Of a stretch of 64,000 nucleotides of DNA, positions 10,914 through 21,847 are shown piece after piece. Source of the DNA: an uncultured bacterium. Its GTDB lineage: Bacteria > Latescibacterota > UBA2968 > UBA8231. Position 1 is the stretch's first letter; the number at the start of each line of letters is the position of its first letter. Under the pieces are notes generated by a model. It was not told the DNA's origin. It ran no database searches and was given only the letters and a program-made list of their open reading frames with translations. The translations under genes were made by a program, and so were the position numbers. The stretch spans positions 10,611-74,610 of the forward strand of contig CAXGPR010000006.1 in the NCBI GenBank assembly GCA_964011675.1. The letters are read 5' to 3'.

Positions 10914-11564
10914 CTATGCCTCTTTACCTGACAGTCTATCGAATGGGTTGACTACGCTAGAGGCCACATTGGAAAGATGTGCGCTGGTGCGGCGTAGGAA
11001 GCGCACAGCCAAGGCAAATGGGACGGCGTCATTGCTACGACCGTCGTCTTTTACAAGCTGCTCAACCAGCATGCTGCTTTGCTTTTTTATTTCTTCGTGC
11101 TGCCGCATTACGCGACGCGCTGCGTCCGTGTTGCTGTCGCGGAGTGCTTCTACCACCTGGGAAAAGAGTGGTGCAATTAAGATTTGCAGCGTGCGACAGG
11201 ATGCTGCATGGGCAGAATTGTTGTGATCTATATTCGCCCATTCACTCAATTCGATTAGGCTCTTGGCGTAGTCTCCGCTGCGTTCGATGTCGTGGACTAT
11301 GCTCAAGAGTGATAGGCTCGTCGGTAGATCCTGTTCGGGATTGAGCGTTAGATGCTCAAAAATCATGCGTCTGACAATCCGCTCACTGGCGTTGATGTCG
11401 TGATCTTCTTTCAGCACTTCAGTGCTGTTGTCGGCTGAATTCAACAGGTTGTTACAGGCTAAGTCAAACATACGTTCTGCCCGTTTGAGCATGTCTATCA
11501 CTTCGTTGATGGCGTCGTAGAGCAGAGACGTGCGTTTATCAGTTTCGATTATTTCTTTAAACAT
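10914..11564 (-). CDS. PhoU-domain protein
   Basis: Helical repeats DHDINASERIVRR, IVHDIERSGDYAKSL and FLRRTSAHLSNVASSV; 3 nt downstream of the Na/Pi transporter. Confidence 0.8.
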   Translation of the reverse strand: MFKEIIETDKRTSLLYDAINEVIDMLKRAERMFDLACNNLLNSADNSTEVLKEDHDINASERIVRRMIFEHLTLNPEQDLPTSLSLLSIVHDIERSGDYAKSLIELSEWANIDHNNSAHAASCRTLQILIAPLFSQVVEALRDSNTDAARRVMRQHEEIKKQSSMLVEQLVKDDGRSNDAVPFALAVRFLRRTSAHLSNVASSVVNPFDRLSGKEA

Positions 11565-11567
11565 GGC

Positions 11568-12662
11568 TTATCTCCAGACGAGAATGAGCAAAAGAGGTAT
11601 GATATAGAAAACGCAGCCAAGGTATATGAACGCATAGACTCTGGAACGGCTGGTCAATTCGGCCAGTCCGCGCGCCATTTTCAGTGGAATTTGGCGAATT
11701 TGTGCAATGGGATAGACGATGGCGATGCCCGTTATGTTGAAGAAAAGATGGGCAAAAGCAACGGTAACAGCGGCCACATTGCCCGTGGCAAGTGAGGCCA
11801 GCATGGCGGTTACCGTAGTGCCAATATTGGCACCGAGCGTGAAGGGAAAAACCTGTTCAAGCGTTAGGATTCCAGCGCCAATAAGCGGCACGATCATCGA
11901 GGTGGTAATAGACGAACTCTGGACCATGATAGTTAGCACGATGCCGAAGAGCATGGCGATGGGCGCTGCGCCGAAGAGGTAGCGATGTAAATAGCGTTCG
12001 GCGCGTTTGATTACGACGCCGCGGGCCAAATCAACCAAGAATTTAAGCGCGAGATACATAATTATGAGCGCTACGATAAGGCATAAAACGGGATTGGAAC
12101 CAAGTATTTCAATTAGCCATTTTACTGCAGGTGAAGTGAGCTGTTTGAGAGGGTTGGCAAACTTCATGCCGCCTATACCCTGAAACAGATCGGCCGTTCG
12201 CTCCGCTACATATTGCAGGTAGCCGGTGGCGATTTCCAACGGCAGTAAAATAAGCACGGCAATTAGGTTAAAGAAGTCGTGCACCGTAGCACCGGCCAGC
12301 GCTCGCTTGAACTCTTCTTTTCGAGTGATATGGCCCATAGATACTAGCGTATTGGTCACGCTGGTTCCCACGTTGGCGCCCATGATTACGGGAATGGCGC
12401 CCTCGATGGTTAAAGCGCCTCCAGCAACCATGCCGACGGCGATGGCCGTCGTAGTAGACGAACTCTGGGCAAGTGTCGTGCCCAAAATACCAGCGAAGAT
12501 GCCTACGAGTGGATTGGACGTCATCTCTATGATCTGTATCGCGAGCTCTTTGCCAAAAAGCTTAAACGATCCGCCGAGTAGGCCAATACTGACGAGAAAA
12601 ACGTAGAGAATTAACACCAAGCCCACTATCTGTAGCCAAAATTGTAACGTATCCCGTTTCAT
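11568..12662 (-). CDS. Na+/phosphate cotransporter (NptA/SLC34-like)
   Basis: Two QSSS repeats (LAQSSSTTT, MVQSSSITTS), GANVGTSVT / GANIGTTVT, AGATVHDFFN; likely ATG at 12662. Confidence 0.9.
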   Translation of the reverse strand: MKRDTLQFWLQIVGLVLILYVFLVSIGLLGGSFKLFGKELAIQIIEMTSNPLVGIFAGILGTTLAQSSSTTTAIAVGMVAGGALTIEGAIPVIMGANVGTSVTNTLVSMGHITRKEEFKRALAGATVHDFFNLIAVLILLPLEIATGYLQYVAERTADLFQGIGGMKFANPLKQLTSPAVKWLIEILGSNPVLCLIVALIIMYLALKFLVDLARGVVIKRAERYLHRYLFGAAPIAMLFGIVLTIMVQSSSITTSMIVPLIGAGILTLEQVFPFTLGANIGTTVTAMLASLATGNVAAVTVAFAHLFFNITGIAIVYPIAQIRQIPLKMARGLAELTSRSRVYAFIYLGCVFYIIPLLLILVWR

Positions 12663-12688
12663 GAGCCTCTTAAATGTGAAGTGTCTTT

Positions 12689-12706
12689 GTAACACAAAAT
12701 TAACAC
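12689..12706 (-). promoter_or_regulatory. 7-4-7 direct repeat resembling a Pho box
   Basis: Minus strand GTGTTAA-TTTT-GTGTTAC (11-bp period, AT-rich spacer) between the predicted promoter and the RBS of the Na/Pi-phoU operon. Confidence 0.45.
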
Positions 12707-12892: not shown

Positions 12893-13630
12893 ATGCCAGT
12901 CCATCTACACATTGTCGAAGATGCGGTCGACGTGGCGCGCGCTGCATCCCAACACGTATGTGCACAGGTGCGCGAGCGTTCTGATGCCGTGTTGGGTCTG
13001 GCAACGGGCTCCACTCCGGAGGCAACCTATGCGGAGTTGGTCCAGTTGTATCGGGAGCGTGCGCTCTCTTTCGCACGCGTGCGCAGCGTCAACCTTGATG
13101 AGTACTGCGGCCTGGATGGAGCACACGAGCAGAGCTATCGCCACTACATGCAAACGCATCTTTTTGACTGGGTGGATATACGTCCTTGGAATACGCTGGT
13201 ACCGGACGGCCTCGCGGCTGATAGAGAAGCGGAATGTCGCGCTTATGAAGAGCGTATTCGCGCACTCGGTGGGGTGGACCTTTGGCTGCTCGGGATTGGT
13301 AGCAACGGACATATTGCCTTCAATGAACCAGGTTCGTCGCGCGATAGCCGAACCCGCTGCGTGCAGCTAACGGCTGAGACCATAGCCGACAACAGTCGAC
13401 AGTTCGCCGCGTCCACGGAGGTGCCTCGGCGTGCCTTTACTGTGGGAGTCGGAACGATATTAGAAGCGCGTCGCGTATTGCTTTTGGCTACGGGTGCACA
13501 CAAGGCGCGCGCTGTAGTTGCCGCATTGCAGGGAGATCCGGGAACGCACTGTCCCGCCAGTTTTTTGCGGGAACACGCGCACTGCACGTTCGTGATTGAT
13601 CGCCCAGCGGCGTCTATGTTGGAGAGGTGA
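12893..13630 (+). CDS. nagB: Glucosamine-6-phosphate deaminase
   Basis: GLATGSTP, NLDEYCGL, LGIGSNGHIAFNEPGS, TVGVGTIL. Confidence 0.92.
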   Translation: MPVHLHIVEDAVDVARAASQHVCAQVRERSDAVLGLATGSTPEATYAELVQLYRERALSFARVRSVNLDEYCGLDGAHEQSYRHYMQTHLFDWVDIRPWNTLVPDGLAADREAECRAYEERIRALGGVDLWLLGIGSNGHIAFNEPGSSRDSRTRCVQLTAETIADNSRQFAASTEVPRRAFTVGVGTILEARRVLLLATGAHKARAVVAALQGDPGTHCPASFLREHAHCTFVIDRPAASMLER

Positions 13631-13634
13631 GCAC

Positions 13635-14825
13635 GTGATTTTGGTGCTTAACTGCGGCTCTTCTTCGCTCAAGTTCTGCCTTTTTGACGAGCACGAAACG
13701 CCGCGTGCCCGCGGCGTGGTCGAGCGTTTGGGACAGCGCGAATCTACGCTGGTCTGCGAGCGGAACGGAGAGCAGATGCGTCGATCTCTACTCGCTGCGG
13801 ATCACCGTCGGGCGTTGGGTGCAGTGGTCGATGCGCTGAGCGAAGGGGGACTGGCAGCCGATGCATTGGAAGGGGTTGGACATCGCGTAGTGCACGGCGG
13901 AGAGCGAGTCGTTGAGGCCGTGCGGATTACGCCGGACATCGAAAAGCACATCGAGGCGTGCGTCCCCCTTGCTCCGCTGCACAACCCGGCTGCTCTAGAG
14001 GGCGTGCGCGCAGCTCGCTGCCTTTTTGTCGGAGTGCCTCAGGTGGGCGTTTTCGATACGGCTTTTCACCAAACTCTGCCCGCTCGTGCATTTCTCTACG
14101 CGCTGCCTCGTGCGCTCTATGCCGAGCAAGGGATTCGTCGCTACGGGTTCCACGGAACTTCGCACCGCTATGTGGCGATGCGAGCGGGGGAACTGCTGGG
14201 CGTTGCGCTGGAGAGGCTAAGCGTTATCACCTGCCATTTGGGCAACGGCGTCTCGCTTGCCGCCGTTGCGGGCGGGCGTTCTGTGGATACGACGATGGGA
14301 TTAACGCCGCTGGAGGGCATTCCCATGGGCACGCGTTCGGGCGATATTGACTCCGCGCTGGTGTTCCACCTGATGCGAGAGGGCAAGACGCTGGATGAGG
14401 TCGAGCACATGCTGCAGCATGAAAGCGGTCTGTTGGGGCTTTCTGGGCGGTCTCAGGACGTGCGTGAACTGGAGACGGCGGCTACGGATGGCGACGAGGT
14501 TGCCGCCGAGGCACTCGAAGTCTTTGCGTATCGGGTGCGCAAAGCGATCGGCTCGTACTGTGCGGTCTTAGGGCGCGTTAACGCGCTGGTATTTACTGGA
14601 GGCATTGGCCAGCACAGCGCTTTTATGCGCAGGCGTATTCTCGAAGGACTCCAGCACATGGGCATGCAGATTGATTCCGCGCGCAACCGAAATCACGCGG
14701 GCGATGAGGGCGAAGTGTCGCACGTCGACTCGCGAGTGAAAATATTAGTGGTTCCGACAAATGAAGAGCTCGTCATCGCGCGCGAGGTGCGCGAAGTATT
14801 GGCTAAGGCTAAGGATATTAGATGA
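13635..14825 (+). CDS. ackA: Acetate kinase
   Basis: ILVLNCGSSSLK, GHRVVHGG, APLHNP, VFDTAFH, RRYGFHGTSH, CHLGNG, TMGLTPLEG, GTRSGD, VFTGGIG, VVPTNEE; GTG start at 13635. Confidence 0.95.
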   Translation: MILVLNCGSSSLKFCLFDEHETPRARGVVERLGQRESTLVCERNGEQMRRSLLAADHRRALGAVVDALSEGGLAADALEGVGHRVVHGGERVVEAVRITPDIEKHIEACVPLAPLHNPAALEGVRAARCLFVGVPQVGVFDTAFHQTLPARAFLYALPRALYAEQGIRRYGFHGTSHRYVAMRAGELLGVALERLSVITCHLGNGVSLAAVAGGRSVDTTMGLTPLEGIPMGTRSGDIDSALVFHLMREGKTLDEVEHMLQHESGLLGLSGRSQDVRELETAATDGDEVAAEALEVFAYRVRKAIGSYCAVLGRVNALVFTGGIGQHSAFMRRRILEGLQHMGMQIDSARNRNHAGDEGEVSHVDSRVKILVVPTNEELVIAREVREVLAKAKDIR

Positions 14826-17170
14826 CAGGAAATACGCTAACTGCCGTTGAACGACACGCGCTCGAACAGTCCCCTCTTGGAGACCTGTATGTTCCAAGAG
14901 AAAAGATGCGAACGATTGTTGTAGACAACTTTCCCTCTCTGGGAAAGCTCGCAGCCATGCGCTTTATCGAATGGGTGCAGCACAACCCCGGCGGTGTTAT
15001 ATCGCTGCCCACTGGTAAAACCCCCGAGCACTTTATTCGCTGGGTGACGCATGTAATGAGCGCATGGGGCACGCCTGAAGTTGTGCGCGAACTGGAGGCC
15101 AACGGCATAGATCCAGGTGTGAAACCGGATATGGCCTCTCTGCACTTTGTGCAGATTGACGAATTTTATCCCATAGATCCGGGCCAGGGAAACAGTTTTT
15201 TTTCCTATGTGAATAAGTTTTACATCGAGGGGTTTGGCCTCTCGCCTGAGCGAGCGCTGCTGATGGACTGCAACGAGATCGGTCTACTGCCCGGTCAGAC
15301 GCTCTCCAGCGTTTGGGCAGATGGAGAGGTAGACCTGTCGCTGCGCAATCGAGCTGCGCAAACCGCGTTGGAGAGCACGCAGCAGCAGGCCCTGATGCGC
15401 ATTGACCAGTGGTGCCAGCAATACGAACAGCGCATACGCGACCTGGGCGGCATTGGCTTTTTTCTGGGTGGGATTGGTCCAGATGGGCACATAGGGTTCA
15501 ACGTGCGCGGGGCAGACCACTTTAGCACGACGCGTCTGACGGGGGTTAATTACGAGACGCAGGCCGCCGCCGCTGGGGACCTAGGCGGTATTGAGGTCGC
15601 GCGCAAGCGACTGGTGATCACGATAGGATTGGGCACGATTGCCTATAACCGAGAGGCCTGTGCGCTCGTTATAGCAGCAGGTGAGGCCAAGGCGGGGATT
15701 GTAGCCGATGCGGTGGAAAGCGATCCGGACGTCTCATATCCGGCAACCGCGCTGCACAGTTTGCCCGGTGCGCGGTTTTACATAACGCTGGGGGCTGCTA
15801 AGCTTCTGGAGCGTCGTCAGCTCGATTTACTAGCTCGACAGGAGCAGGTTGACGATGAGACGGTAGAAAAGATCGTAGTCGACTTGGCCGTTGACTGTAA
15901 TAAGCAGATTGATGCGTTAACAGAAGCTGATTTTGCTGATAGCGAATTCGCTGCAGCGCTCCTCGAGCGTCGCCCCGAGAGCGTAGGGGAGCTTACGCAA
16001 AGCGTGCGCAACAGGCTGATTTCCAAGATCGAGCGGGGTATGGATACGATGCAAGATACGCGTTTCTTGCACACGGAGCCCCATCACGACGATCTGATGC
16101 TTGGCTATTGGCCTTACATCGTTCGGCACACCAGGCCCGATAGCAACACGCACTATTTCGTCTGTTTGACTGGTGGGTTTACGGCGGTCACAAATCAGTT
16201 TATCTGTGACCATGTTGAACGACTGCGGCGCTTTCTCGACAGCGCTGACTGCGCTCTCCTCATGGACGAGGGTTACTTTGATCCGAGCAATAGTCAGGGA
16301 CGCAATCGCGACGTGTGGCAGTATCTTGACGGCGTAGCCGCTGACGATGAAGATCTGCGCAACGAGGGTATGGCGCGGCGCTTCCTGCGCAATCTGATTG
16401 ATTTGTATGGGTCGATGGACCGCGCGGCGCTTAAGGAGCGCATCGGAGCTTTGGAGGACTATTTTTCTGCGCATTATCCAGGTCAAAAAGACGAGTCCGA
16501 CATACAGCGCCTAAAGAGCATGTGCCGAGAATGGGAAGCCGAGTGCACTTGGGGCTATTTGGGGTGGAACTGCGAAAGCGTGCGGCATCTGCGACTCAGC
16601 TTCTACACGGGCGATATTTTTACCCGCGAACCTACCGTCGAAGGCGACGTCGTTCCGGTGATCAACCTACTTGAAGAGGTCAATCCAGATATTGTCAGCG
16701 TCGCGCTCGACCCGGAAGCAAGCGGCCCAGATACCCATTACAAAGTCCTACAGGCGATCACCGAGGCGCTGCGGCGCTACGAGGCGACGAGCGGACGCTC
16801 CGATATAAAGGTCTGGGGCTACCGGAACGTGTGGTTTCGCTTTCATCCCAGTGAAGCAGACATCTTTGTTCCGGTCTCACTCAATATGCTCTCTGTTATG
16901 CACAGTGCGTTTATGAACACCTTTATCTCTCAGCGCGATGCGTCATTTCCTAGCTACGAGCACGATGGTCCCTTTTCCGAACTGGCACGTAAGGTGCAGG
17001 TCGATCAGTATCAGAAACTCAAAACGTGCTTGGGACGGGCTTGGTTTCACGAGCACCCGAGTCCGCTTATTCGAGCGACGCGCGGTTTGGTTTATCTCAA
17101 GGAAATGCCGTTGGGCGAGTTTTACGAGCGCAGTCGCACGCTTATGTTGGCGGCGGAGAATCGTCAATAA
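14822..17170 (+). CDS. Glucosamine-6-phosphate deaminase domain fused to a PIG-L/LmbE-type deacetylase domain (long NagB)
   Basis: N-terminus SLPTGKTP, QIDEFYP, GGIGPDGHIGFN; C-terminus HTEPHHDDLMLG, CLTGG, GPDTHYK, WGYRNVW. Confidence 0.8.
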   Translation: MTGNTLTAVERHALEQSPLGDLYVPREKMRTIVVDNFPSLGKLAAMRFIEWVQHNPGGVISLPTGKTPEHFIRWVTHVMSAWGTPEVVRELEANGIDPGVKPDMASLHFVQIDEFYPIDPGQGNSFFSYVNKFYIEGFGLSPERALLMDCNEIGLLPGQTLSSVWADGEVDLSLRNRAAQTALESTQQQALMRIDQWCQQYEQRIRDLGGIGFFLGGIGPDGHIGFNVRGADHFSTTRLTGVNYETQAAAAGDLGGIEVARKRLVITIGLGTIAYNREACALVIAAGEAKAGIVADAVESDPDVSYPATALHSLPGARFYITLGAAKLLERRQLDLLARQEQVDDETVEKIVVDLAVDCNKQIDALTEADFADSEFAAALLERRPESVGELTQSVRNRLISKIERGMDTMQDTRFLHTEPHHDDLMLGYWPYIVRHTRPDSNTHYFVCLTGGFTAVTNQFICDHVERLRRFLDSADCALLMDEGYFDPSNSQGRNRDVWQYLDGVAADDEDLRNEGMARRFLRNLIDLYGSMDRAALKERIGALEDYFSAHYPGQKDESDIQRLKSMCREWEAECTWGYLGWNCESVRHLRLSFYTGDIFTREPTVEGDVVPVINLLEEVNPDIVSVALDPEASGPDTHYKVLQAITEALRRYEATSGRSDIKVWGYRNVWFRFHPSEADIFVPVSLNMLSVMHSAFMNTFISQRDASFPSYEHDGPFSELARKVQVDQYQKLKTCLGRAWFHEHPSPLIRATRGLVYLKEMPLGEFYERSRTLMLAAENRQ

Positions 17171-17215: not shown

Positions 17216-18049
17216 ATGCATATTGCCGTTACAGGTGCAGCCGGTCGTATCGGTCGCTATGTCGTACGCGATTTGCTGGCGGCTGGCCACAGCGTGCAGG
17301 GCATTGATGCGGTCGCGGGGAGCGGTCTACAGGTCGACCTGACGGACGCGGGCCAAGTGTATGACGCGTTTGCTGGAGCCGATGCCGTGGTGCATATGGG
17401 TGCATGGGCCAATGCGGGTATGGTTCCAGATGTGCGGACGTATGGCGATAATACTGCCGGCACGTATAACGTCTTCCAGGCGTGCGCCGACTTGGGTGTG
17501 CGGCGCGTCGTGTCGGCTTCCAGCAACCAGGTTTACGGGTTTTTTTCTGCACCTCCTCTCTATGCGCCGATAGACGAGGCGCACCCAACGCGCCCGGTCA
17601 ACAGCTATGCCCTGTCTAAGCTCGCCGGAGAGCAAGCGGCCGAATACTTTTCTCGCACGCGGGGTATGGAGATTCTTTCCTTCCGCATTATGGGCGCGCG
17701 TGTCCCGTCTGAACTGCCCGGTGATATAGCGCAAATCAAGTCGGACGAGGGCGCGGCTACCAAGCTGCTGTGGACGCGCAGTGATGCACGCGACATTGCG
17801 CTAGCGTGTCGATTGGCTGTAGAGGTCGAAAGGGTGGAGTCGGGCGCGTATAATATCACCGGACCGCGCGTTGTGCTCGAAGTGGAGACGCGCGAACTGC
17901 TGGCGCGCTACTGCCCTTCCACGGCAGTGCGCGAGGGATTGGTAGGGGCAGCCGCTCCGCTGAGCTGCCAAAAAGCCCAGCGCGCTTTCGGATACCAACC
18001 GCGCTATGCGTGGTCAGAATACACGTATCACCTGGAGGATAACGAGTGA
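17216..18049 (+). CDS. NAD-dependent epimerase/dehydratase (extended SDR)
   Basis: VTGAAGRIG, ASS, YALSK. Confidence 0.85.
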   Translation: MHIAVTGAAGRIGRYVVRDLLAAGHSVQGIDAVAGSGLQVDLTDAGQVYDAFAGADAVVHMGAWANAGMVPDVRTYGDNTAGTYNVFQACADLGVRRVVSASSNQVYGFFSAPPLYAPIDEAHPTRPVNSYALSKLAGEQAAEYFSRTRGMEILSFRIMGARVPSELPGDIAQIKSDEGAATKLLWTRSDARDIALACRLAVEVERVESGAYNITGPRVVLEVETRELLARYCPSTAVREGLVGAAAPLSCQKAQRAFGYQPRYAWSEYTYHLEDNE

Positions 18050-19269
18050 GCAAGTTGGCTATCGACGGAGGGGAACCGCTGCACACCAAGCCGTGGCGCA
18101 CAGGGGCTTTCCACGTGCGAGAAGAGCTCCGCGTACTGAGCGACGTGCTGTCCGGCCCCGCGCTGCCGATGGCGCGTGGACCGCGTGTCATGAAACTGCG
18201 CGAGGACCTGCAGGCCTGCTACGGCATGCGCTATGCGGTGCCGGTTTCTTCTGGCAGTGCTGCTATTCACGTTGCGCTCTTCGCTGCAGGAGTTGGTGCG
18301 GGAGACGAGGTTATTGTCAGTCCGCTCACGGACTACGGCAGCATCATCGGGATCTTTCAGCTCAATGCAATTCCCGTTTTTTCCGACGTGCTGCCCGACA
18401 GTATTTTGATGGACGTCGCCGATGTGAAGAAAAAGATAACGCGCCGTACCAAAGCGATTATGCCGGTGCACAACGGGGGATACGCCGTTGACATGCGCGC
18501 GCTCAATCGCCTCGCTAAAGCGCACGATCTCAAAGTAGTGGAAGACTGTGCACAGGCGCACCTAGCGGCGCTGGGTAAGAAGCACCTGGGTCAGTACGGC
18601 GATATCTCGGCTTGGAGCTTTAACGAGAGCAAGCACATGAAGGCGGGAGAGGGGGGATTTGTGCTGACCAACAAAAAAGCGCTGGCCGAAGCGGCGGACC
18701 TCTTTTCCGACAAGTGTTATCCGCGATTTCCGGGCGCTCCTCCCACGCCGGCTTTTCCCGCCCTCAACGTTCGCCTCGACGAAATTAGCGCTGCGCTGGC
18801 CTCAGTGCAGCTGAAATATCTGCCGGGGTGGATTGAGAAACGCCGTCGCTTTGCCGATGCCTTTCACGGGGAAATAGACGGCGTGCCCGGCATCTGTCCC
18901 GAGGCGCAGCCCCGGGGTGCGCGACCCAGCTATTGGTGGGTGAGTTTCGCCGTAGACAGAGAGCAGTTGGGTATTGATGCAAAACAGTTTTGTAACATGT
19001 TAAGCGCAGAGGGGATTCCGGCCGGGGCGCGCATTCAGCAGTATGTTCCCGGTTGGCAGGTGTTTCGCACGCTAAACGAAAATCCGGCCGCTTTTGCCAG
19101 CTACTGTCCGCAGCGGCTCGAAAAGGGATCTTTTCCGCTCGACGTAGCTCCCGTTGCTCAGCGGGCCGAATGGGTGATTGGTGCCGTGCGCATGACGCAG
19201 CACAACACGCCGGCCGAAGCGCGCGCAGCGGGGCGGGCGATTAAGAAAATTGTGAAGGCACTGATGTGA
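18046..19269 (+). CDS. DegT/DnrJ/EryC1/StrS PLP-dependent aminotransferase
   Basis: SSGSAAIH, GDEVIV, VVEDCAQAH, SFNESKHMKAGEGG (PLP lysine). Confidence 0.9.
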   Translation: MSKLAIDGGEPLHTKPWRTGAFHVREELRVLSDVLSGPALPMARGPRVMKLREDLQACYGMRYAVPVSSGSAAIHVALFAAGVGAGDEVIVSPLTDYGSIIGIFQLNAIPVFSDVLPDSILMDVADVKKKITRRTKAIMPVHNGGYAVDMRALNRLAKAHDLKVVEDCAQAHLAALGKKHLGQYGDISAWSFNESKHMKAGEGGFVLTNKKALAEAADLFSDKCYPRFPGAPPTPAFPALNVRLDEISAALASVQLKYLPGWIEKRRRFADAFHGEIDGVPGICPEAQPRGARPSYWWVSFAVDREQLGIDAKQFCNMLSAEGIPAGARIQQYVPGWQVFRTLNENPAAFASYCPQRLEKGSFPLDVAPVAQRAEWVIGAVRMTQHNTPAEARAAGRAIKKIVKALM

Positions 19270-20834
19270 AAACGGACATACTGATTGTTGGGGGAGGAAC
19301 TGGCGGCGTTGCGGCGGCTCTGAGCGCAGCGGCGCGTGGAAAGCGCGTAGTACTGACGGAAGAGACGGACTGGATCGGCGGACAGCTCACCTCGCAGGGC
19401 GTGCCGCCCGATGAACACCCGTGGATAGAATCGTTTGGCTGCACGGCCCGCTATCGCCTTTTTCGCCAGCGCGTGCGACAGTACTACCAGCAGTTCTATC
19501 CACTCCGTCCCGAGGCCCGCGCCAATTCTCGGCTCAATCCGGGCGACGGTAGCGTTTCACGTCTGTGCGCCGAGCCAAGCGTTTATTTGTCTGCGCTGAA
19601 GAGTATGATGGCCTACGACGTAGCGCGCGGGATGCTGGAGGTGCGTTTGCGCACAAGGGCTACTGCTGTAGAGGTAGACGGCGACCGCATCCGTGCCGTT
19701 CGCGTGCTCGACATGAATACGGGGCGCGAGGAGACGATTGAGGCCGCCTACATGCTCGATGCAACCGAGTTGGGTGATCTGATTGAAATGGCAGGCGTAG
19801 AATACGTTTCCGGTGCCGAATCGCAGGGGCAAACGGGTGAACTACACGCCAGCGCTAAGGCCGATGCAGAGAACGTACAGGCGCTCACATGGTGTTTTGC
19901 AATGGGCTACGATCCCGATGGCGAACACGTTATTGATCGGCCGGGTGCCTACGGTCGTTGGCGAGATTACGATCCAGGTTTGACGCCTGCGTGGCCTGGG
20001 AAAATGCTCGACTGGACTTACACCCATCCTATTTCGCTGGATCCGATTACGGCGACCTTTGATCCAGCGCGCGGGGAGGGGTCGCTGTGGCGCTATCGTC
20101 GTCTGATAGGTCGCGCTCACTACGCTGTTGGCTGTGAGCCGCACGAGGTCGCGCTGGTAAACTGGCCGCAGAATGACTATCTCGAGGGAAACATAATTGA
20201 CAAGCCGCCTGAAGAGGTTGTGCATCATTTGCAGCAGGCGCGCGAGTTATCGCTCTGCCTGTTTTACTGGATGCAAACAGAAGCGCCGCGCGCCGATGGC
20301 GGCGTGGGTTTTCCCGGACTGTATCTGAGGCCCGACGTAATGGGAACCGACGACGGTCTGGCCAAAGCACCCTACATCCGCGAGGCGCGGCGCATACGCG
20401 CCCGCTTTACGGTCACGGAAGAGCACGTGGGGCGGGAAGCGCGCGGCAGCGATCAGGCGGCATCGTTTGGAGACAGCGTTGGCGTAGGCTGCTACCGCAT
20501 CGATCTGCATCCGAGCACGGGCCGCGATAATTATATCGACGTATCGTCTCTGCCTTTTCAGATTCCGCTGGGTGCACTTGTGCCGGAGCGGATAGAGAAT
20601 TTACTGCCCGCCTGCAAGAATATTGGCAGCACGCACATCAGCAATGGCTGCTATCGTCTACACCCGGTAGAGTGGAATATTGGCGAAGCAGCCGGAGCAC
20701 TCGCCGCTTTCTGTATCGATGGTGGCCATGTGCCGCAGCAGGTGCACGAGAGCGAGGCGCTGATAGAACGCGTTCAGAATGTGCTCCGCACTGACGGCTT
20801 TGAGCTAGAGTGGCCACAGGTCCATCCCGTGTAA
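19266..20834 (+). CDS. FAD-dependent oxidoreductase (FAD_oxidored/PF12831-like)
   Basis: IVGGGTGGVAAA, IGGQLTSQG, DATELGDL, PYIREARR, FQIPLGALVP, YRLHPVEWNIGEAAG. Confidence 0.85.
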   Translation: MKTDILIVGGGTGGVAAALSAAARGKRVVLTEETDWIGGQLTSQGVPPDEHPWIESFGCTARYRLFRQRVRQYYQQFYPLRPEARANSRLNPGDGSVSRLCAEPSVYLSALKSMMAYDVARGMLEVRLRTRATAVEVDGDRIRAVRVLDMNTGREETIEAAYMLDATELGDLIEMAGVEYVSGAESQGQTGELHASAKADAENVQALTWCFAMGYDPDGEHVIDRPGAYGRWRDYDPGLTPAWPGKMLDWTYTHPISLDPITATFDPARGEGSLWRYRRLIGRAHYAVGCEPHEVALVNWPQNDYLEGNIIDKPPEEVVHHLQQARELSLCLFYWMQTEAPRADGGVGFPGLYLRPDVMGTDDGLAKAPYIREARRIRARFTVTEEHVGREARGSDQAASFGDSVGVGCYRIDLHPSTGRDNYIDVSSLPFQIPLGALVPERIENLLPACKNIGSTHISNGCYRLHPVEWNIGEAAGALAAFCIDGGHVPQQVHESEALIERVQNVLRTDGFELEWPQVHPV

Positions 20835-20848
20835 TTAAGGAGCGCTAA

Positions 20849-21847
20849 GTGGAAAAAATGAAATTCGGTATTATCGGCTGCGGTGATATCGCCGCAAGTT
20901 CCTTCGCACCTAGCTTGCTTCAGTCGGAGCATGCCGAACTCGTTGCCGTATGCCGTCGAGATCTGGACGGAGCGCGCGCATTTGCGGAGAAATTTGGCGG
21001 CTGTGCCGCCTATGCTTCCGCCGAAGAGCTGTTTGCGGAGAGCGGCGTTGAGGCGGTAATCGTATCGACGCCGACAGATACTCACTGTGCCTACACAACG
21101 CTGGCAGCTCGAAGGGGCGTGCACGTGCTCTGTGAGAAGCCTATGGCCCATAATCGAGACGAGTGCCGTCAAATGGTTGAGGTTTGCCGAGAGCACGAGG
21201 TGGCGCTGGGCGTGGCCTATCGCCGTAGACTCTTTCCACAGGTATTGAAAGCAAAGGAGCTGATAGCCGACGGTCGAATTGGTCGCGTCGTATGCGTGCG
21301 CACTCACTACAGCGGTTGGATGGGAATCGAGCCCGGCGCTTGGCGACTGAGTCTGGGTATTGGCGGTGCAATGATGGAAATGGCTGTGCACCGGCTCGAA
21401 GTGCTCCTAAACTTTGCTGCCGCGCCCGTCGAGGTGAGTGCGTTCGTAGAGACCGTCGAGCACGATTGGCCCGTAGATGACACGGATGCGATACTCCTCA
21501 AATTTGCCGACGGTACGGTCGGTCTACATTCGACGCTTCTGTGTTCGAATCCGCGCCGCGATATGGCGCATATAGACGGCACAAAAGGGCGCATTATGAT
21601 CGACGCGCTCGAGTTTAGCTCGCCCGTGCTCCGGTTGGAAACGGATAGTGGCGTTGAAGAAATCAGCGTAGATCCGCTGCAGGCGCCCTATTTTGACCTG
21701 CCGATGATTGACGATTTTATAGGAGCAGCCCGTCAGGGCCGCATGCCGGTGTGTGACGGCTTGACGGGATACGGGGTGCAGGCCGTAGCGGATGCAGCCT
21801 TTGAAGCTGCTCGGACTAAACGCACCGTTGAGGTCGAACCCTTTTAA
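20849..21847 (+). CDS. Gfo/Idh/MocA family oxidoreductase
   Basis: GIIGCGDIA, HVLCEKPMA, GGAMMEMAVH. Confidence 0.9.
   Translation: MEKMKFGIIGCGDIAASSFAPSLLQSEHAELVAVCRRDLDGARAFAEKFGGCAAYASAEELFAESGVEAVIVSTPTDTHCAYTTLAARRGVHVLCEKPMAHNRDECRQMVEVCREHEVALGVAYRRRLFPQVLKAKELIADGRIGRVVCVRTHYSGWMGIEPGAWRLSLGIGGAMMEMAVHRLEVLLNFAAAPVEVSAFVETVEHDWPVDDTDAILLKFADGTVGLHSTLLCSNPRRDMAHIDGTKGRIMIDALEFSSPVLRLETDSGVEEISVDPLQAPYFDLPMIDDFIGAARQGRMPVCDGLTGYGVQAVADAAFEAARTKRTVEVEPF

Follow-up and report, generated by a model that had tools for sequence, protein, structure and literature searches.

Enzymes that join a glucosamine-6-phosphate (GlcN-6-P) deaminase, or NagB, domain to a PIG-L domain are known from the NF002557/PRK02122 type, a protein of ~650 amino acids (aa) common in Bacteroidota. 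A NagB-PIG-L fusion of one size type or the other accompanies NamZ, AnmK and MurQ in a predicted peptidoglycan-degradation route of anaerobic ciliates (PMC13198582), and the NagB of the F. johnsoniae ChiUL, which may be of either NagB type, could not be expressed (PMC5127042). We examined a longer protein of this architecture, the last gene of a nagB-ackA-fusion triad on a 64,000-nucleotide (nt) stretch of DNA (hereafter the window) from an uncultured Latescibacterota bacterium (assembly GCA_964011675.1, contig CAXGPR010000006.1, positions 10,611 to 74,610). This fusion of 782 aa has the same domain order and linker as NF002557, the C-terminal halves are 28% identical (hhalign probability 99.2), and the equivalent of NagB residue Arg172 is missing both from it and from the NF002557-type example. 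The fusion nevertheless fails the NF002557 model (210 bits, cut-off 384), is ~130 aa longer, and reads FNV for FNE (with loss of Glu148), PHHDD for PHPDD and GPDTH for PHGTH.

The reading we favor, at a probability of roughly 0.58, is that the fusion, encoded next to a canonical NagB and a relic acetate kinase (AckA), couples an altered NagB domain to a PIG-L-fold N-acetylglucosamine-6-phosphate (GlcNAc-6-P) deacetylase that displaces NagA. The proposed reaction, GlcNAc-6-P to GlcN-6-P and acetate, is that of NagA (TIGR00221), whose amidohydrolase fold is unrelated to the PIG-L fold, so the displacement would be non-orthologous. The family itself is known but uncharacterized; the motif swap, the pattern of in-operon displacement and the loss of glmS are additions of the present analysis. 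Activities of all enzymes of the locus are predicted here from folds, motifs, gene absences and synteny, which were observed directly.

A Pfam search of the whole fusion matched no family at all, and a PF02585 profile search of the host genome did not retrieve its C-terminal half; the domain assignments come instead from structure comparison and profile alignment. In the structure models (pLDDT 95.7 for the fusion and 94 for its C-terminal half), the C-terminal half has the fold of the LmbE/PIG-L zinc deacetylases, with VIA Z-scores of 20.4 to BshB/BC1534 (2IXD), 19.7 to archaeal diacetylchitobiose deacetylase (3WE7; see also 8BGN) and 14.9 to MshB. Seven LmbE-fold chains, among them the hydratase GalB at 18.8, lie between 14.9 and 20.4, and the next unrelated chain scores 8.7. 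The defining zinc motif of LmbE/PIG-L proteins, HXD1D2 plus a distal histidine (PMC4101496), is shared with the three deacetylases, and the HHDD and later DTH that the first-pass annotation had reported in this half are both kept. Among 79 homologs, H421 is conserved in 72, D423 in 76, D424 in 78 and H639 in 70, and PHHDD (84/84) and GPDTH (83/84) are near-invariant in the family sequences. Since this motif is intact and conserved, the modeled domain does not look dead. It differs from the deacetylases in its low identity (14-17%, the closest sequence matches being chitobiose deacetylases), a large helical insertion, the attached NagB fold and one active-site exchange. The substrate-binding histidine typical of LmbE/PIG-L proteins, which lies outside the defining motif, is replaced by Pro636 (proline in 67 of the 79 homologs), which hhalign places on the position of MshB His144, three residues before the distal zinc ligand. 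The loss of a histidine from HxxH together with the gain of one in the change from HPDD to HHDD suggests compensation.

The N-terminal half shares with the NagB enzymes of E. coli and B. subtilis the fold and the equivalents of Asp72 (D113), Asp141 (D221) and His143 (H223), all three conserved in homologs, and it retains TGKTP and K290. It departs from them in several insertions, in a Lys or Arg in the TGxTP phosphate loop, and in two substitutions: V228 (nt 15503-15505) stands at the position of Glu148 and G252 at that of Arg172, a residue with a phosphate-binding role. Glu was found at the former position in 0 of 84 family sequences, and the domain scores 79.3 bits against TIGR00502, below the cut-off of 236.9. 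In NagB, Glu148 is listed as a catalytic residue that contacts His143 (PMC3234256, PMC4008608). The short NagB encoded upstream is, in contrast, a canonical member: a motif check found TGSTP, DEY and NGHIAFNEP with Asp72, His143 and Glu148 all kept, and its best match in the PDB is B. subtilis NagB (2bkv, E 2.8e-62). The suggestion in the first-pass annotation that the two deaminases divide GlcN and galactosamine (GalN) substrates between them was not borne out, as the short NagB falls below the cut-off of the AgaI galactosamine-6-phosphate isomerase model NF007291 (146.3 bits, cut-off 271) and no examined homolog of the fusion has Glu148 in its NagB half. AckA is intact, with all nine motifs found. 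Its GTG start lies 4 nt past the nagB stop codon behind a GGAGAGG ribosome site, and its stop codon overlaps the fusion start in an ATGA, as had been noted for this tightly linked triad. A longer ackA reading frame listed from TTG 13596 is unlikely because it would overlap nagB.

Coordinates of the triad, the fusion's domains and motifs, and the flanking genes, in window positions
Feature	Position	Strand	Description
Na/Pi cotransporter + PhoU-like gene	10914-12695	-	divergent from nagB
nagB	12893-13630	+	245 aa; canonical monomeric-type glucosamine-6-phosphate deaminase; TIGR00502 265.3 bits, cut-off 236.9
ackA	13635-14825	+	396 aa; GTG start; intact acetate kinase; PF00871 E 5e-140; TIGR00016 450.2 bits, cut-off 293.4
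fusion gene	14822-17170	+	782 aa; NagB-like + linker + PIG-L/LmbE-like; member of ~780-aa family
NagB-fold domain	14903-15826	+	residues ~28-335; Foldseek to NagB E 5.8e-15, TM up to 0.90 by target; alignments
PIG-L/LmbE-fold domain	16052-17167	+	residues ~411-782; large helical insertion; VIA and Foldseek structure comparison
H421-H422-D423-D424	16082-16093	+	HXD1D2 zinc and general-base motif; His where relatives carry Pro
G635-P-D-T-H639	16724-16738	+	DTH at 637-639; third zinc ligand H639; Pro636 for first His of HxxH
epimerase/dehydrogenase, DegT-type aminotransferase, FAD oxidoreductase and Gfo/Idh/MocA genes	17216-21847	+	after the fusion, same strand

The absence of nagA from the window, also seen in the first-pass annotation, extends to the host genome (G000; 4.07 Mb, 94% complete), where the best TIGR00221 score, 25 bits, lies well under the cut-off of 225.65. 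The host encodes MurQ, whose product is GlcNAc-6-P. Its two other PIG-L proteins are a generic LmbE and a protein with HAAD (L006:1468-2229, contig C38) that lies beside an enolase-superfamily gene and looks more like GalB than like a deacetylase.

Comparative evidence came from the 76 genomes of the host family (f1), 54 with the fusion and 22 without. In the clade of this family that lacks glmS, 8 of the 10 fusion-less genomes carry a nagA-like gene, compared with 13 of the 54 fusion-bearing family genomes; the two fusion-less genomes with neither gene are 73% and 81% complete. One genus is split evenly, five genomes with the fusion and five with a nagA-like gene. Three of its nagA-bearing members (G159, G166 and G167) have lost the fusion cleanly from an otherwise intact operon and carry a nagA-like gene elsewhere in the genome, and representatives of two other genera (G154, G096) show further operon deletions with nagA-like genes present. 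This complementary distribution in the host clade amounts to three or four exchange events, not ten. The fusion is also the only NagB-family match in 20 of the 31 genomes of one genus (nine single-contig chromosomes), which have no nagA-like gene; this fits a bifunctional enzyme and also fits cells that keep GlcN-6-P for the wall without deamination. Around one distant homolog (L143) genes for a GH18 chitinase and a ROK regulator come before the fusion and genes for an SSF transporter and a ROK kinase after it; the stretch contains neither nagA nor nagB as a separate gene. Other distant homologs neighbor NamZ with GH18 and an AmiA-like amidase, or GH94, or have a hexokinase or SSF transporter directly upstream.

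Several observations weigh against a NagA-displacing deacetylase. The TIGR00221 cut-off is not reached by most of the clade's nagA-like genes, and the genomes are metagenome-assembled genomes (MAGs), of which related ones are not independent. An outside set of 50 genomes that carry the fusion was reached through other loci; most of its members are Planctomycetota, and one, G168, is probably a relative. In this set nagA over the cut-off occurs in 26, nagB in 40 and a glmS match in 45. The MshB H144A mutant, altered at the position where the fusion has Pro, retains at most 1% activity (PMC4101496), and the PIG-L fold also includes GalB, which is a hydratase. No match to a ROK-family N-acetylglucosamine (GlcNAc) kinase was found in the host genome, and the literature searched yielded no characterization, enzyme assays included, of either the ~780-aa or the ~650-aa type. 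On the outside counts we rejected both universal NagA replacement, as a family-wide rule, and universal replacement of GlmS by the fusion. Counting in favor of displacement, 12 of these 50 genomes have the fusion with glmS or nagB and no nagA-like match.

If the fusion does displace NagA, the locus would be a salvage and catabolism unit for GlcNAc-6-P with a PIG-L-fold zinc hydrolase in NagA's place. The C-terminal domain would deacetylate GlcNAc-6-P arising from recycled wall sugar (through MurQ) or imported GlcNAc, with zinc bound by H421, D424 and H639, D423 as the base, and H422 perhaps standing in for the lost substrate-binding histidine. The short NagB, as its family assignment predicts, would convert GlcN-6-P to fructose-6-phosphate (Fru-6-P) and ammonia. 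Because the fusion's own NagB-fold domain lacks Glu148, it may be a deaminase of lower speed or instead a module that binds sugar phosphates, at about even odds. In a more doubtful third step AckA might phosphorylate the acetate, for whose capture an AMP-forming acetyl-CoA synthetase (Acs) encoded in the host genome is also available. Since the host has murA and no glmS, the unit would probably also act as a valve that determines whether scavenged amino sugar is kept for the wall or burned. Elsewhere in the host, a nucleotidyltransferase, a GHMP kinase and an N-acylglucosamine 2-epimerase are encoded adjacently (L157:4699-8594, - strand, contig C39), a candidate entry for hexosamine-1-phosphate salvage.

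The first-pass annotation had read the triad as a self-contained N-acetylhexosamine pathway that also recovers the released acetate. The linkage is more than chance, because the same gene order recurs in many relatives; of 80 loci, 14 have an ackA no more than 6 kb from the fusion. Host-type AckA occurs in 20 relatives, always adjoining the fusion or what remains of it, and of the 53 relatives with the fusion 34 lack this AckA. The fullest version of the operon contains DUF4954 (divergent), nagB, acp, an HMGL-like synthase, pta, ackA, the fusion and a ferritin gene (ftn), and the window triad is a remnant of this ancestral operon after loss of acp, the synthase and pta. In five planctomycete loci, placed on a separate branch of the family tree (built with FastTree), pta and/or ackA adjoin the fusion, which takes six changes on the tree, four of them forced; a common origin with the host-clade linkage may be involved, since one of the five shares acp and DUF4954. 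The DUF4954 + DUF6819 protein (L095:13137-15086, L149:3172-5121) is divergent from nagB in many family members, adjoins nagB in L075 and L102, and is absent from the host. The HMGL-like enzyme (462 aa; L095:10548-11936, - strand) passes no NCBIfam cut-off, and its N-terminus presumably resembles Re-citrate synthase.

Acetate handling is in keeping with a deacetylase, and the acetate could have been assimilated by the pta-ackA pair of the ancestral operon. In the host genome classical Pta (PF01515) is absent, as it is from 7 of 7 genomes of the host genus, and a PduL phosphotransacylase is present, encoded in a microcompartment locus with an aldehyde dehydrogenase and shell proteins (L005; contig C2:20867-24388). 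A second, distinct AckA is encoded on another contig (L010, C80), and no phosphoketolase was found in the host genome as a source of acetyl-phosphate. The case for coupling the fusion to AckA acetate recovery in the host genus is weak because Pta is gone from the genus and Acs is present, and that for a self-contained recovery route is weak because so many fusion-bearing relatives lack host-type AckA. The ackA link by itself adds little. The observation behind the first-pass annotation is confirmed and its interpretation partly supported: a NagA-displacing deacetylase fits the comparative genomics, while acetate recovery by the operon is weakly supported.

A feature that the first-pass annotation did not cover is the loss of glmS, which was not found in the host genome. 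Within the host family, glmS occurs in 1 of the 54 fusion-bearing genomes and in 11 of the 22 others. The retention of murA alongside suggests, from gene content, that the host and its clade depend on salvaged GlcNAc, and reliance on amino sugar from outside may extend to much of the class. In the sister families f3 and f4 most genomes have no glmS, and nagA-like genes and nagB are present without the fusion. Akkermansia muciniphila is similar to the host in having NagB and wall synthesis genes and no glmS; its dependence on external GlcNAc has been shown by growth (PMC5902328), whereas that of the host is predicted from MAGs. Across the clade, the combination of lost glmS and kept murA predicts a need for external GlcNAc, a lead for cultivating this uncultured group. 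Two candidate substitutes were rejected. A search for SIS-type deaminases turned up none that was strong in the host or four relatives, though the same search missed the host MurQ, and an MCGIVG protein on contig C55 is an asparagine synthase-type amidotransferase. A divergent, 511-aa GlmU-like protein with insertions (L125:520-2055, - strand, contig C81) ends before the acetyltransferase C-terminus; it is found in 60 of the 76 family genomes and is absent from most glmS-bearing genera.

Because the fusion so often occurs together with nagA, nagB and glmS in Planctomycetota, it is frequently not the only route, and it could be an extra enzyme beside NagA and NagB that acts on another N-acylated sugar (GalNAc-6-P, ManNAc-6-P, free GlcNAc or chitobiose) or performs non-amidase chemistry like that of GalB. 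Both active sites are changed family-wide, chitobiose deacetylases are nearest by sequence, and GalB shares the fold. We consider this reading unlikely, if one to be reckoned with, since in-operon loss of the fusion is repeatedly paired with nagA-like genes, the fusion is the sole candidate for both the nagA and the nagB slot in the chitin/GlcNAc operon of L143, and the host has MurQ and no other clear GlcNAc-6-P deacetylase. It is improbable that ackA was selected beside the fusion for acetate recovery in a self-contained pathway with deaminases split between GlcN-6-P and GalN-6-P. The invariable adjacency of host-type AckA to the fusion or its remnant would fit such selection, as would the planctomycete loci on their separate branch. 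The lack of Pta in the genus, the presence of Acs and the absence of host-type AckA from most fusion-bearing relatives argue otherwise, neither deaminase is marked as GalN-specific, and adjacency need not mean coupling because the ancestral operon also holds acp, the HMGL-like synthase and ferritin.

The skewed distribution of glmS could also be read anabolically, with the fusion replacing GlmS: the NagB fold would aminate Fru-6-P and the PIG-L fold, rewired as a transferase, would acetylate GlcN-6-P with acetyl-phosphate from AckA, pulling the unfavorable amination and feeding GlcNAc-6-P into the wall pathway through the GlmU-like protein without its acetyltransferase end. The truncation of that protein, which tracks the clade, is in keeping with this scheme, as are the retention of AckA without Pta in the host genus and the 20 genomes with the fusion as their only NagB-family protein, no nagA-like gene and no glmS (four tested have murA). 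We regard both the replacement of GlmS and the transferase activity as very unlikely. Most outside fusion-bearing genomes have a glmS match, f3 and f4 are mostly glmS-less without any fusion, linked AckA is missing from most fusion-only genomes, and where the fusion has been lost, the genomes lack glmS and encode NagA-like hydrolases alongside the same GlmU-like protein, as though the fusion were interchangeable with a hydrolase. We know of no PIG-L transferase, which also counts against the scheme. In glmS-less Akkermansia the reverse NagB reaction is not physiological (PMC5902328), a further point against it, and dependence on scavenged GlcNAc is the simpler explanation.

The ~780-aa family comprises up to 6790 clusters at E <= 1e-20, with 304 matches in species-representative genomes, and extends over Latescibacterota, Planctomycetota, KSB1, Calditrichota, Ignavibacteria and Spirochaetes; the nearest relatives, which are MAGs, were for the most part deposited under Ca. 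Latescibacterota or Gemmatimonadota. If the fusion is a deacetylase that displaces NagA, a Pfam-invisible family of thousands of clusters now annotated as plain deaminase would be a deacetylase unrelated to NagA with a rearranged zinc site, and a gap in reconstructions of chitin and peptidoglycan turnover would be closed. An uninterrupted 781-aa homolog (L140:7711-10056) lies on a contig of marine origin that also encodes PsaD and mitochondrial carriers and is therefore probably from an alga.

In the window, a scan for promoters and terminators gave 5 hits, compared with 2.6 +/- 1.8 expected by chance, and so was not above chance. The Na/Pi cotransporter and PhoU-like pair upstream is found again in 6 of the 80 related loci, each of them from a close relative. 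In relatives, a ferritin gene usually lies between the fusion and the downstream genes; at the host locus it is absent, and the epimerase/dehydrogenase gene cluster follows the fusion.

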